From Roseovarius sp. (GTDB taxonomy: Bacteria > Pseudomonadota > Alphaproteobacteria > Rhodobacterales > Rhodobacteraceae), in the NCBI RefSeq assembly GCF_027019125.1, contig NZ_JALUXE010000004.1:21785-85784 (forward strand): a stretch of DNA of 64,000 nt, in the 5' to 3' direction. Shown here in pieces: positions 36,828 to 43,016 of this stretch. The notes beneath the pieces are model-generated. The model ran no database searches. It saw only the letters and a program-made list of their open reading frames with translations, and had not been told where the DNA came from. How positions within the stretch are numbered: position 1 is the first letter of the stretch; each line of letters begins with the position of its first letter. Made by a program: the position numbers and the translations under genes.

Positions 36828-36869
36828 TTCCCCATTGGCGCGCCGCGCATGGCATCCTATACCAGAGCC

Positions 36870-37310
36870 ATGTTTGCAGATTTCCTGAAGCGGCTGATCC
36901 AACCAGCCCCCGAGCCTCTGACCGGCGGTGATGCCCGTCTGGCGCTCTGTGCCCTCCTCGTCCGCGTCGCGCGCACCGATGGAGATTACGCTGCGGCCGA
37001 GATCATCCGCATCACGCGCATCATCTCAGCCCGTTACAACCTGTCTCAACCCGAGGCAGAGGCCCTGCGCCAACAGGCCGAAAATCTCGAGAGCGAGGCA
37101 CCCGACACTGTCCGCTTTACCCGCGCGATCAAGGATGCAGTACCACATGAGGACCGTCTCGGCGTGATCGAGGCGCTCTGGCAAGTGGCCTTGGCCGATG
37201 GGGTGCGAGAGGCGGATGAGGACGCGCTGTTGCGTTTGGTGGCCAGCCTTTTGGGCATCACCGATCAGGAAAGTGCCCGCGCCCGTCAGCGCATCATGGG
37301 TCAAACATGA
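36870..37310 (+). CDS. TerB family protein (tandem paralog)
   Basis: LLVRVARTDG, DTVRFTRAIK, LWQVALADG. Confidence 0.9.
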   Translation: MFADFLKRLIQPAPEPLTGGDARLALCALLVRVARTDGDYAAAEIIRITRIISARYNLSQPEAEALRQQAENLESEAPDTVRFTRAIKDAVPHEDRLGVIEALWQVALADGVREADEDALLRLVASLLGITDQESARARQRIMGQT

Positions 37311-39764: not shown

Positions 39765-40646
39765 ATGTTTGCCTTTTGCTCCGATCCAGCCAGCCTTGAC
39801 GGTCTTGCGTGGATTTCCTGCTACCTGACCACGTCCAAACACCTGCAACTTTACTATGCGGTGGGCACGGTTCTGTTGCTGCTGGCGATCACTGCACCGG
39901 CTGCGCTTGCCTTTGGATTTGGTGGGGCAATGGCCGCGCGGGCGCATCTGGCCCCCCTGCGCTGGTTCGGCAAGTCCTATATCGCCGTCGTGCGCGGCGT
40001 GCCCGACATCGCGTTCTTTCTCTTTTTCGTCATCGCGCTGGATCAGGCGTTTGAATGGACGCGGCATCAGATCCTGTGCCCAGATTGGGACCAACCGATC
40101 CGTCAGGGCAATGACTTTGTGGTCTGTCAGGCCGCGAAACTCCCCCTCGGCACAGCCCCGCAATGGGTGCATGAAACCTACGGCTTTGCCCTTGCTGTGC
40201 TGACCTTTGCCATCGTCTTTGGGGCCTTTGCCGCGAATGTGCTCTTTGGGGCCATGCGCGCCGTGCCCCGTGCCCAGATGGAAACCGCCGAGGCCTATGG
40301 CATGTCCCGTCGTCAGGCCTTCTGGCGGATCATGGTGCCGCAGATGTGGGTTTACGCCCTGCCCGGTCTTGGCAATCTCTGGATGGTGCTGATCAAGGCC
40401 ACACCGCTGCTCTTCCTGCTCGGGGTCGAGGATATCGTCTATTGGGCGCGCGAACTCGGCGCCACGGCCAATCCGCGATTTACCGACTATCCGCATGGCG
40501 ACTGGCGGATGTGGTATTTTCTGGGGCTGATGGTGTTCTATCTCGGCTTCACCCGCGTGTCAGAGGTCATGCTGGAGCGCCTCATGCAGCGCCTTACATT
40601 CGGGCAGGCCACGACCGGCGGTGAAGCGCAAAGGAAAGCGGCATGA
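39765..40646 (+). CDS. Polar amino-acid ABC transporter permease (HisQ-like)
   Basis: RGVPD, AVPRAQMETAEAYG, KATPL. Confidence 0.93.
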   Translation: MFAFCSDPASLDGLAWISCYLTTSKHLQLYYAVGTVLLLLAITAPAALAFGFGGAMAARAHLAPLRWFGKSYIAVVRGVPDIAFFLFFVIALDQAFEWTRHQILCPDWDQPIRQGNDFVVCQAAKLPLGTAPQWVHETYGFALAVLTFAIVFGAFAANVLFGAMRAVPRAQMETAEAYGMSRRQAFWRIMVPQMWVYALPGLGNLWMVLIKATPLLFLLGVEDIVYWARELGATANPRFTDYPHGDWRMWYFLGLMVFYLGFTRVSEVMLERLMQRLTFGQATTGGEAQRKAA

Positions 40647-41630
40647 GCTGCATACCTTTGCGAACCACACTAAGCCATTTTGGATGCGCACCCTTCCAAC
40701 CATTCGGATATGTCTCTGATAAAATCATCCTCGTCTTGGGTGATGATGCCATCCGCTTGAACTACGCCTACGGCTGCCTTAAAAAGTCGCTCAATGCGCT
40801 TAATTGGCCAATTCGCTATTTCTGCAAGAGCCTCGTCCAATTCCGTTTGCGTTGGACGCGTTCGTCGCACCAAACGTCCGAGTTTCTCAAAGCCGTCCAG
40901 ACCGGGCAGAACATCCAGAACACCTTCATTCTTAAGGCATTCAGCTTCAGTTTCGGTAAATTGCATGATCCTATCAACCTCTTCAATGTGAAGCAGATCA
41001 TCCGCACGCGCAGCTGCCGAAAGCACGACAATCGCTGCTTTGAGTTCTCGCCGAAGCATTGTGTAAGGAGAACTAGAATAGCTGGATTTACCGACGCTAT
41101 CTTCTTTCAAACTTGTAAGTTCAACCTCGTAACCAGAATCCCCTGCGATCAGTTCACCAATGAGAAGCTGTGCGTCTTCAACGACGCCGTCATCATCAAT
41201 AACCCCTTCGATTCGATCCAACCTGAACGTTCTGTGAGCCCTTCGTTCATGGCAAATCGCACCGACATAGAATATTCCCCCGCGGTTCTCTACCCACCGC
41301 GTAGTTATTCGTCTTCGGCTGAAGTTATCTCCCGCGTCGCGGTAGTCGATGACAAGGAAAAGAGGCTCCAAGTTATAGCGGCGAGTTTGAGGAACAATTG
41401 GGTTATTTTCATGCTGGAGTTCGCGGCACTCGTGCTCAATGTCAATTCCGAGTTCGACGTCAACAAATCCACTTGGTGGAAGTTCAAAAACTACAGTAAC
41501 TGCTTCAGTTTCGCTCGGCGTCCGGCCTCTCAACCAAGAAAAAAATCTCATTCACTCGTTCCCCTTAATCAAAGTAAGCGCATGGAATTTAAGCTGCACA
41601 TCTGTCAACTGAGGTGTCAAGCATGAGCTG
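40641..41630. mobile_element. AT-richer single-gene cassette bounded by a 10-bp direct repeat, inserted between two permease genes
   Basis: GCATGAGCTG at 40641-40650 and 41621-41630; hand counts of three 60-nt lines give 43-55% GC vs 60% on one flanking line; no transposase or terminal inverted repeats. Confidence 0.85.
40670..41551 (-). CDS. WYL domain + TerB-like domain fusion protein, no HTH
   Basis: WYL: IDYRDAGDNFSRRRI...YVGAICHERRAHRTFRLDRI; TerB-like: LSAAARADD...EE...AAVGVVQADG...E; SD-like AAGGGGA upstream. Confidence 0.85.
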   Translation of the reverse strand: MRFFSWLRGRTPSETEAVTVVFELPPSGFVDVELGIDIEHECRELQHENNPIVPQTRRYNLEPLFLVIDYRDAGDNFSRRRITTRWVENRGGIFYVGAICHERRAHRTFRLDRIEGVIDDDGVVEDAQLLIGELIAGDSGYEVELTSLKEDSVGKSSYSSSPYTMLRRELKAAIVVLSAAARADDLLHIEEVDRIMQFTETEAECLKNEGVLDVLPGLDGFEKLGRLVRRTRPTQTELDEALAEIANWPIKRIERLFKAAVGVVQADGIITQDEDDFIRDISEWLEGCASKMA

Positions 41631-42429
41631 TCTGGAGACCATTCAGGCCTATGGGCTGCGCGCCATCGGCATCGGCGAGCGCCTCTTGCCGCAAAGCGAT
41701 TTCACCCTCTGCCAGCAGGTCACGCTGATCGGCTCCGGCCTGATCTGGAATATCTATTTCGGCTTGTTCGCCCTCGTCAGCGGCTTCATCCTCGCGACTG
41801 CCGTGGCACTTGGCAAAGGCTCACGCAACCGCGTGATCCGCAAACTGTCCGAGTGGTTCATCTTTGTCTTTCGCGGCTCGCCGCTCTTCATCCAGTTTTT
41901 CTTTGCCTATTTCTTCTTTCTTTCTCTCAAATCGGTCTCGCCCTTCTTTGATATCCTGACCTCGGCCTGGCTTGGCGCGTTGATCGTGCTTTTCCTCAAC
42001 ACGGCCGCCTATTCCGGCGAGATCTTCTATGGCGCGCTGCGGTCCATTCCCAAAGGCGATGTCGAGGCCGCAGATGCCTATGGGTTTTCCGGTTGGCCCC
42101 GCTTTCGCCGGATCATCTGGCCCACCATGCTGCGGCTCGCATGGCCTGCCTATACCAATGAGGCGATCTTTCTCTTTCATGCCACGACGCTGGTCTTTTT
42201 CTCGGGCTTTCCGGTCTGGCAACAGCGCGGCGATGCGCTCTACTATGCCAAGTATTTCGCCGACAAGACGTTTAACCCCTTCGTACCCTACCCGATCCTT
42301 GCGGGCTATTTCATCCTGCTCACGCTGGTGGTGATCGGCGTCTTTGGCCTGATCAATCGTCGGCTCAACCGTCACCTGCCGCAGGAATATCGCCGCAAGC
42401 TTAGCCTGCGGGTGAACCTGATCCGCTGA
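41623..42429 (+). CDS. Polar amino-acid ABC transporter permease (HisM-like)
   Basis: FRGSPLFIQ, NTAAYSGEI, EAADAYG. Confidence 0.93.
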   Translation: MSCLETIQAYGLRAIGIGERLLPQSDFTLCQQVTLIGSGLIWNIYFGLFALVSGFILATAVALGKGSRNRVIRKLSEWFIFVFRGSPLFIQFFFAYFFFLSLKSVSPFFDILTSAWLGALIVLFLNTAAYSGEIFYGALRSIPKGDVEAADAYGFSGWPRFRRIIWPTMLRLAWPAYTNEAIFLFHATTLVFFSGFPVWQQRGDALYYAKYFADKTFNPFVPYPILAGYFILLTLVVIGVFGLINRRLNRHLPQEYRRKLSLRVNLIR

Positions 42430-43016
42430 TGGGCGGGGTCGCGATCCTCGTTCCCGCCGCTGGCGCGTCGTCGCGGATGCGGGGCAAGGACAAACTATTG
42501 CAAACCGTGCGCGGTCAACCGCTCCTGCGCGACCGCGTGACGCTCGCCCTTGGCACGGGCTGCGCCGTGGCCGTGACCCTGCCACCAGAGGACGCCGCCC
42601 GCCGCGCGGCTCTGGACGGGCTCCATGTCACCCTTTTGCCCGTGCCCGACGCTGCCTCCGGCATGTCAGCTTCGCTGCGCACCGGCGCGGCCTGGGCGAT
42701 GACCCAAGATGCGGCCGCCCTTATGGTGCTGCTCCCGGATTTGCCAGACCTGACGGCAGAGGATTTGCAAACCCTCCTTCACACGAATGATCATTCCGGA
42801 ATCTTTCGCGCTTGCGATGCAGATGGCACCCCCGGCCATCCTGTCATCCTGCCTGCACGCCTTTTGCCGGACCTCACGCGCGTTACCGGCGACACCGGCG
42901 CGCGCGACCTCTTGCGCGCCCATCCCGTGACACCCGTTCCCCTACCCGGACGACATGCCACAACCGACCTTGACACGCCCGAGGCTTGGGCGGCATGGCG
43001 CGCCGCGAATCCCTAA
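42429..43016 (+). CDS. MobA/MocA-like nucleotidyltransferase family protein
   Basis: PAAGASSRM, GMSASL, LPDLP, GHPV, GDTGAR, DLDTPE. Confidence 0.9.
   Translation: MGGVAILVPAAGASSRMRGKDKLLQTVRGQPLLRDRVTLALGTGCAVAVTLPPEDAARRAALDGLHVTLLPVPDAASGMSASLRTGAAWAMTQDAAALMVLLPDLPDLTAEDLQTLLHTNDHSGIFRACDADGTPGHPVILPARLLPDLTRVTGDTGARDLLRAHPVTPVPLPGRHATTDLDTPEAWAAWRAANP

Follow-up and report, generated by a model that had tools for sequence, protein, structure and literature searches.

The window analysed here is a 64,000-nt stretch of a Roseovarius sp. genome (contig NZ_JALUXE010000004.1, positions 21,785 to 85,784), and at about two-thirds of its length a transporter operon is interrupted by an inserted cassette. 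The cassette separates two permease genes and carries on the opposite strand its only gene, termed here the cargo gene, which encodes a protein with a WYL domain and a TerB domain (WYL-TerB). On the strand of the operon, the open reading frame (ORF) listing contained a stop-free ORF that crosses the whole cassette and is referred to below as the relay ORF. At both ends it shares an ATGA with the neighbouring permease gene: its start codon ATG (40643-45) overlaps the permease-1 TGA (40644-46), and its stop codon TGA (41624-26) the permease-2 ATG (41623-25). The codon boundaries of the relay ORF coincide with those of the cargo gene, and the two are therefore in exact antisense register; the insert's two remaining plus-strand frames are interrupted by 13 and 22 stops. 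An initial annotation of this DNA had described a plus-strand ORF of 327 codons running from the permease-1 stop to the permease-2 start in exact antisense register with the WYL-TerB gene, and both its coordinates and its register were confirmed. Comparison with related loci, described below, indicates that the insert is probably an antisense accessory cassette that is built to be translatable on its opposite strand, so that the ribosomes of the host operon can relay through it. The features of the locus are collected in Table 1.

Table 1. Features at the permease junction, with positions counted from the first nucleotide of the window
Feature	Position	Strand	Remarks
Permease 1	39765..40646	+	Polar-amino-acid-type ABC transporter operon; Pfam BPD_transp_1, 6.4e-16; stop TGA 40644-40646
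AGGA Shine-Dalgarno-like motif	40632..40635	+	7 nt upstream of ATG 40643; from sequence
Terminator-like hairpin for cargo gene	40640..40656	-	GGTATG-CAGCT-CATGCC, then GCTTTCCTTT
Left copy of duplicated target	40641..40650		10 bp, GCATGAGCTG; repeat search
Relay ORF	40643..41626	+	327 codons; ATGA to ATGA; antisense register with cargo gene
Inserted cassette	40651..41620		970 bp; G+C content (GC) ~48%, ~60% in flanks
Cargo gene	40670..41551	-	293 amino acids; WYL beta-barrel ~57-118 and TerB-like helical bundle ~162-292
Spacer	41552..41622	both	71 nt; plus strand is the open tail of the relay ORF
GAGG Shine-Dalgarno-like motif	41611..41614	+	From the cassette; 8 nt before permease-2 ATG; putative ribosome-binding role
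Right copy of duplicated target	41621..41630		10 bp, GCATGAGCTG; repeat search
Permease 2	41623..42429	+	Intact; Pfam BPD_transp_1, 1.7e-19
MobA-like nucleotidyltransferase gene	42429..43016	+	Next operon gene; start overlaps permease-2 stop

The ORF listing placed the start of permease 2 at the GTG at 41614; all relatives use the ATG of the ATGA (protein start MSC), which corresponds to 41623 here. The C terminus of permease 1 (GGEAQRKAA before the stop) is likewise kept in relatives.

The reverse strand of the cargo gene is open in codon register through avoidance of TTA, CTA, and TCA, the three codons whose complements are stops. None of the three occurs in its 293 codons, at a GC of 48.8% and with 28 Leu and 15 Ser codons, as the initial annotation had noted for a gene of about 50% GC. 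Codons ending in A are otherwise common in the gene (GAA 22, GCA 8, CGA 8, ATA 4, and GTA 4). In synonymous shuffles, in which third positions were exchanged among four-fold boxes and among NNR boxes with the protein and composition kept, 10.9 antisense stops were expected, and 0 of 20,000 shuffles had none (P<5e-5; binomial P 1.7e-8). The other ORFs of at least 200 codons and a GC of at most 0.51 in the same genome contained 1.6-5.5 of these codons per 100, about 3.5, a rate that implies about 10 in the cargo gene.

The protein family is rare, with 11 clusters in 5.8 billion proteins and an occurrence in 6 of 400 genera of the taxonomic family. A total of 19 homologues, comprising the window's gene and 18 relatives (26-60% identity), all lie antisense inside an operon, which is either the permease junction or a prophage early operon. 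Antisense stops were counted in the pooled 19 embedded genes, which comprise 5,538 codons with 500 Leu and 247 Ser: TTA, CTA, and TCA were found 0, 0, and 0 times, versus about 149 expected, and the sister codons GTA, ATA, GCA, CCA, and ACA were used 40, 37, 91, 71, and 49 times, respectively. Most members have a GC of 0.48-0.56. Because four-fold sites are saturated between distant lineages (identity 0.19-0.35), the stop-free state must have been kept by each lineage on its own.

The closer of two clades (39-60% identity) has every member antisense between the same two BPD_transp_1 genes, in Roseovarius, Lutimaribacter saemankumensis DSM 28010, a Nioella sp., and several metagenomic lineages. 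In all eight lineages of this permease clade, the cargo gene has a GC of 0.48-0.56 and no TTA, CTA, or TCA, the reverse frame ends at a TGA overlapping the ATG or GTG of permease 2, a G-rich Shine-Dalgarno-like motif (GAGG, GGAG, AGGG, AGGA, or GGG) stands 7-11 nt before that start, and the spacer from the cargo start to the permease-2 start is exactly 71 nt long despite diverged sequence. At the other end, seven of the eight lineages have an ATG or GTG that overlaps the permease-1 TGA in antisense register, and in these seven the permease-1 stop and the cargo stop are separated by a spacer of 23, 26, 104, or 125 nt, all of which are 2 mod 3. Spacer indels in the permease clade preserve phase. 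The exception is L028, in which the junction ATG opens a 22-codon ORF that ends at a TGATG in antisense register, an apparent two-step relay. When the 3' spacers of L028 and L029 were compared with that of L035, a 1-nt difference in a C7 run was seen to put the junction ATG out of phase; the 22-codon ORF of L028 and L029 could be a real two-step relay, a homopolymer assembly error, or a case of slippage. Wherever the contig extends over them, both permease genes of the filled loci are intact.

A second clade, recovered by profile search at 26-37% identity, is split from the permease clade on the tree with support of 97/83. Eleven members of this phage clade were examined (L031, L058, L059, L061, L062, L074-L077, L158, and L159), and all 11 lie antisense inside a prophage-like early operon, with a cro-like or YdaS-like helix-turn-helix (HTH) gene upstream on the operon strand, replication-type genes downstream, and a divergent CI/S24 or XRE repressor gene that points the same way as the cargo gene. 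At 7 of the 11 loci, the start of the reverse frame is on the stop of the upstream gene (ATGA, GTGA, or TGATG), and at 8 loci its end is on the start of the next gene (ATGA, GTGA, or, in L058, ATGCTTGA). Other arrangements were as follows: in L031, the frame starts 4 nt after the upstream stop, and the contig stops before the downstream junction; in L076, the frame has its own strong Shine-Dalgarno sequence (GAGGAGG-N8-ATG); in L158, it starts at an ATGA where no upstream gene is called and ends on an ATGA, the ATG of which lies in a different frame from the next called gene; and in L061 (genome G375), the cassette is followed by an inserted IS21-family transposase gene, and the reverse frame continues for 404 nt without a partner gene. 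The lower-GC members of the phage clade have 0 antisense stops, versus 4-13 expected (P 1e-2 to 1e-8). Set beside prophage morons, which are accessory genes transcribed independently within a prophage operon, the phage-clade copies lie inside early operons in the opposite orientation, and the window copy lies in a chromosomal transporter operon. Taken across both clades, the sequences indicate that the family keeps the stop-free, phase-locked state under selection in two unrelated operon types.

Relay ORFs were also found in inserts without a gene. Among 80 roseobacter-group loci with the permease junction, 55 had ATGA, 2 had TGATG, and 15 had small inserts of 16-184 nt. All 15 small inserts form a complete relay ORF, which starts on the permease-1 stop and stops on or next to the permease-2 start, and the gap is 1 mod 3 in 13 of them, like the 976-nt gap of the window; within the genus, there is a 10-codon relay ORF in G014 and a 35-codon one in G017. 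Many of these inserts are copies of a repetitive extragenic palindromic (REP)-like repeat (GGGGGCGCTGCCCCC ... CCCCCGAGGTATTT..GGCCAGATGAA), of which the genome of the window has at least 33 copies (for example, at C2:129760 and C5:39983). The REP-like junction inserts appear from their sequences to be a Roseobacter-group counterpart of mycobacterial interspersed repetitive units (MIRUs; see below), and those in other roseobacters are closer analogues of MIRUs than the cassette is.

Several further observations were made at this junction. The REP-like repeat is present there in L087, L090, L106, L131, L135, L143, and L157, with relay ORFs of 31-47 codons. A second palindromic element, CCCCGGGCCTGACCCGGGG (read as PAPGLTRGL), occurs at the junction in L064 (G017) and also in L092; in L064, which is one Roseovarius, the element alone makes up the 35-codon relay ORF, which runs from ATGA to TGATG. 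The same element lies between permease 1 and the cassette in L035, L028, and L036; it adds 81 or 102 nt in two cassette lineages with the frame unbroken, and L028 is 1 nt out of phase. Finally, L069 (G014) has a 29-nt insert with a duplicated GCATGAG and a 10-codon ORF (MSFAHPGNMA and stop) from ATGA to ATGA; this could be either a mini-insert or the remnant of an insertion that was later lost.

Termination-reinitiation coupling at overlaps of -4 and -1 and Rho-dependent polarity on untranslated RNA have both been described (PMC12548453). By the mechanism proposed here, ribosomes that end permease 1 would start again at 40643, read the 327-codon filler as far as its stop at 41624-26, and start once more on permease 2. 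A transcript translated in this way would offer Rho no naked RNA, and permease 2 and the downstream genes would escape polarity. The cassette would thus be nearly neutral to the host operon and, in the prophage relatives, to the early (lytic) operon of the phage, while the WYL-TerB gene would stay under its own opposite promoter. The initial annotation had suggested that the open frame relays coupling and avoids Rho polarity, and the comparison lends this suggestion support through 19 of 19 stop-free genes, phase-locked ends, an unconstrained peptide, the small relay inserts, and the antisense stop in the one clear full-length homologue outside such operons. The coupling role and the anti-Rho role are indistinguishable from sequence alone.

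Several points weigh against translational relay. Transcription and translation of the plus-strand frame are predictions from comparison. The high-GC members L062 and L159 (GC 0.69-0.74) are uninformative, with P values of 0.16 and 0.04 for zero stops, and the lineages share ancestry, so that products of P values overstate independence. The Shine-Dalgarno-like motif that the cassette places before permease 2 could permit independent initiation, which would make coupling needless and leave only the anti-Rho role. There is also a weak terminator-like hairpin at the left junction. In addition, the natural controls are thin. Of the clear full-length homologues, just one, L060 (G059), has no opposite-strand operon around it; it groups weakly with the permease clade, and its neighbours are a divergent DUF59 gene and prfA, so that it is crossed by no such operon. 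The initial annotation had counted stop-free homologues in non-operon contexts as evidence against its reading; L060 contains one CTA, and hence one antisense stop, versus 2.9 expected, a difference that is not significant alone. A distant partial homologue, L063, which lies antisense between minus-strand genes with its neighbours on the opposite strand at distances of 86 and about 500 nt, nevertheless has one CTA, and hence one antisense stop. The natural control is in the right direction but weak.

Three other explanations of the open frame were weighed. The best of them, which nevertheless appears unlikely, is that reading of the antisense frame by ribosomes benefits the cassette instead of the host operon, either because operon ribosomes prevent sense/antisense duplexes and RNase III cleavage or because interference at the level of transcription or translation ties WYL-TerB expression to how active the host or phage operon is. 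Stop avoidance and an unconstrained peptide would follow equally, protection of RNA by ribosomes is a hypothesis already advanced for ambigrammatic narnaviruses (PMC8316113), and the prophage cargo genes point with the repressor gene and against the early operon, which makes a lysogenic/lytic switch plausible. Taken alone, however, a benefit to the cassette leaves unexplained why the frame starts on the upstream stop and ends on the downstream start in both contexts, and why gene-free inserts at the same junction have relay ORFs.

That the plus-strand ORF encodes a functional protein, and that the locus is a true antisense overlapping gene pair, is very improbable, even though the frame is long, starts with a ribosome-binding site, is open in every lineage, and has a strong Shine-Dalgarno sequence of its own in L076. 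The amino acid identity of the reverse frames between distant pairs is 0.15-0.26, which equals the expectation from sense constraint alone (z ~0) under a null in which synonymous codons were redrawn for both sense proteins. Where the reverse frame extends beyond the cargo gene, its ends differ in sequence and range in length from 23 to 125 nt, the composition of the relay ORF peptide is that of a shadow frame, and neither this peptide nor any of seven orthologous reverse peptides had a Pfam or PHROG match. A functional antisense protein was rejected on the resampling test and the absent family matches; the frame is kept open while its product is not conserved, and the peptide is unconstrained, which agrees with the impression of a shadow peptide in the initial annotation.

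Codon bias or chance, the latter of which the initial annotation had left room for, has a negligible probability. GC-rich alphaproteobacteria seldom use TTA, CTA, and TCA and often contain exact-antisense shadow ORFs, the hosts are GC-rich, zero stops are expected for L062 and L159, and long antiparallel ORFs are generally more frequent than expected (10.1101/724807), but the shuffles, the low-GC genes of the same genome, and the pooled counts of sister codons, which are used freely by members mostly with a GC of 0.48-0.56, exclude such an origin, and it does not explain the open spacers, the indels in multiples of three, or the stop/start overlaps at both ends.

How the cassette entered the operon can be read in part from its flanks. 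A 10-bp target-site duplication of the ATGA junction flanks the 970-bp insert and gives a unit of 980 bp. In the empty site, found in 24 of 24 congeners searched and in R. mucosus DSM 17069, the permease genes abut and the 10 bp are present once. The empty-site sequence of R. mucosus DSM 17069 includes AAAGCGGCATGAGCTGTCTTGAG; its flanks have 92% and 89% nucleotide identity to the window, and the amino acid identity of permease 2 is 98%. Flank identity to the congeners and to R. mucosus is not lower near the junction and reaches 95-97% in the adjacent 60 bp, from which it follows that the cassette entered a resident junction precisely and did not arrive with foreign flanks. The insertion is recent and precise. 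Since the split from R. mucosus predates it, the open frame was brought by the cassette and did not evolve in place.

The duplication of the target also accounts for the geometry of the junctions. With the upstream copy, permease 1 keeps its stop and the former permease-2 ATG becomes available behind its AGGA site; with the downstream copy, permease 2 retains its ATG and an overlapping TGA becomes available; and, because the unit of 980 bp is 2 mod 3, the relay ATG and TGA share one frame. The sequence AAGG(A/C) likewise precedes the ATGA in empty sites, and the AGGA motif of the window is probably the original permease-2 ribosome-binding site, now used by the relay ORF. Target duplications were also found in relatives, with lengths of 10 bp (L059), 9 bp (L024 and L158), and 8 bp (L062), and the repeats flanking several copies are centred on GC(G/C)GCATGA. 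These findings suggest a sequence-specific target of 8-10 bp, with no recombinase evident. The flanking repeats of the window, L024, L059, L062, L158, and L159 share GC(G/C)GC(A/G)TGA, and at the junctions of the same six loci, which represent both operon contexts, the upstream gene ends with Ala-Ala-stop.

The cassette is present as a single copy, with no second one in the genome; the repeat search found no terminal inverted repeats at the ends of the insert, the only gene of the insert is WYL-TerB, with no transposase gene present, and Rfam gave no RNA family match in the region. A transposon, insertion sequence, or miniature inverted-repeat transposable element was accordingly rejected, in spite of the target duplication, as both terminal inverted repeats and a transposase gene are absent. 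A free-standing homing endonuclease gene would fit the use of the same site in diverged hosts but was rejected, given that neither a nuclease fold or family nor co-conversion of the flanks was found. Homologous replacement of the whole allele, by homing or by a gene-transfer agent with recombination, was also rejected, since there was no co-conversion tract relative to 11 congeners or to R. mucosus.

The hairpin at the left junction is made up of the duplicated target together with the initial 6 nt of the cassette, and after it comes the complement of permease-1 AAAGGAAAGC. It is the only terminator-like hairpin after the cargo gene, and it is weak, as there are 3 such sites in the region versus 1.4 +/- 1.4 in shuffles. 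The 3' end of the cassette may depend on the target site.

Among known systems, MIRUs appear by analogy to be the closest precedent at the DNA level for a relay insert. As summarised in PMC12548453 from Supply et al. 1997, MIRUs are mobile inserts at an operon-internal start codon, with an ORF coupled at -4 (ATGA), and expression of the flanking genes is little disturbed because of this spacing. The cassette resembles them in lying between co-directional operon genes with an ORF that overlaps the upstream stop and the downstream start. Unlike MIRUs, which are gene-free, 40-100 bp long, and repeated in many copies, the cassette is a single-copy element of 970 bp; because its other strand encodes a complete protein of 293 amino acids, the relay frame must be bought by codon choice over 293 codons.

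For a complementary frame that is stop-free over a whole gene, the closest precedent by analogy appears to be the ambigrammatic narnaviruses, such as Culex narnavirus 1, which have a stop-free complementary ORF over nearly the whole gene; polymorphism tests indicate that this reverse ORF apparently encodes no functional protein and that translation itself seems to matter (PMC8316113, PMC8155312). The cargo gene resembles such genes in the stop-free state of its complement in codon register, in its avoidance of the same three codons, and in a reverse ORF without purifying selection at the protein level. Narnaviruses, however, are RNA genomes in eukaryotes in which no neighbouring genes are served, whereas the cassette is DNA in bacterial or prophage operons, with a frame that is phase-locked to them. 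Among prokaryotes, an excess of long antiparallel ORFs with stop-free antisense frames has been reported, whose translations are without purifying selection, and the authors speculate that antisense translation has a role other than protein coding (10.1101/724807). That study gives no mechanism or context rule, whereas here the antisense-in-operon context with overlapping junctions suggests a reason. Translation that is needed while its product is dispensable is known for comEB, which precedes the coupled gene comEC in Bacillus subtilis (10.1101/2020.12.30.424838), and for "delivery" upstream ORFs, which are needed only for being translated (PMC12548453); these are resident sense genes or short upstream ORFs, whereas the relay frame is the reverse strand of a foreign gene.

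No description of a bacterial or phage cassette combining a relay insert with an ambigrammatic gene was found in the open-access literature. The WYL-TerB cassettes may, as a tentative proposal in which we have somewhat limited confidence, be the first recognised "ambigrammatic" DNA genes: mobile, transposase-free accessory genes that target and duplicate GC(G/C)GCATGA stop/start junctions and whose stop-free reverse frame is phased for read-through translation of the host or phage operon. If this is true, they would represent a third way, after self-splicing introns at the RNA level and inteins at the protein level, for a foreign gene to reside in an expression unit without a phenotype, and they would hint at a way of inserting site-specifically at ATGA junctions without a transposase. 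The translation need of a host operon would then shape the synonymous codons of a whole foreign gene on the other strand, a constraint that is missing from current gene-finding and codon-usage models. Part of the excess of long antiparallel ORFs that avoid stops in prokaryotes, which lacks an explanation, would also gain a mechanistic basis, and some stop-avoiding "shadow" ORFs a testable explanation. Antisense genes could moreover be embedded in tightly coupled operons without polarity, which would be useful for synthetic operon design. For annotation, the 327-codon frame should neither be called a protein gene nor be dismissed as meaningless.

The cargo protein matched the Pfam families WYL (PF13280, 2.2e-8) and TerB (PF05099, 2.2e-6), the latter above the gathering score. 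An AlphaFold2 model with a predicted local distance difference test (pLDDT) score of 71 has a WYL barrel at residues 57-118 and a helical bundle at residues 162-292. The FRxDRI motif of WYL domains, which have an Sm-like/SH3 beta-barrel fold, is present, and F109, R110, D112, and R113 are invariant. The best Foldseek matches to the model were the WYL domains of PafBC, CapW, BrxR, and DriD, which sense single-stranded DNA (ssDNA) or other ligands, and the cargo protein may, to judge from the model, combine a TerB module with a WYL module that senses a ligand or ssDNA. It shares the WYL barrel with the winged-HTH-WYL-WCX regulators (CapW, BrxR, PafBC, and DriD) and the TerB-like bundle with TerB proteins, but unlike these regulators, it lacks both an HTH and a WCX domain and is not accompanied by partner defence genes. 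Pfam, the defence libraries, and Foldseek yielded no HTH, nuclease, or transposase domain in the protein; matches in the defence-system libraries were at the level of the WYL domain only, with no defence partner genes in the neighbourhood, and phage records gave one partial match. A lone WYL-TerB cargo gene was not found in the literature searched.

The minus strand of the 71-nt spacer contains a ribosome-binding site for the cargo gene (AAGGGGA) and a -35-like TTGACA at 41620-41615. A consensus promoter scan of the spacer returned no full promoter; these elements nonetheless suggest that the cargo promoter lies in the spacer. The co-orientation of the prophage copies with the repressor gene suggests that the cargo gene is perhaps expressed in lysogens.

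Two minor observations concern other genes of the host. A TerB-domain gene of the host (36849-37310, plus strand) lies just upstream of the transporter operon, as does one in the Lutimaribacter-like locus L014 (8269-8709). A link between this gene and the TerB domain of the cassette was considered and rejected; the two have only the generic TerB motif in common (BLASTP E value, 0.017), and their proximity is probably a coincidence. Elsewhere in the genome, at C34:344377-345243, there is another pair of mutually antisense open frames, of 274 and 288 codons at a GC of 0.55, in which the minus-strand product resembles a membrane-anchored receiver-like protein.

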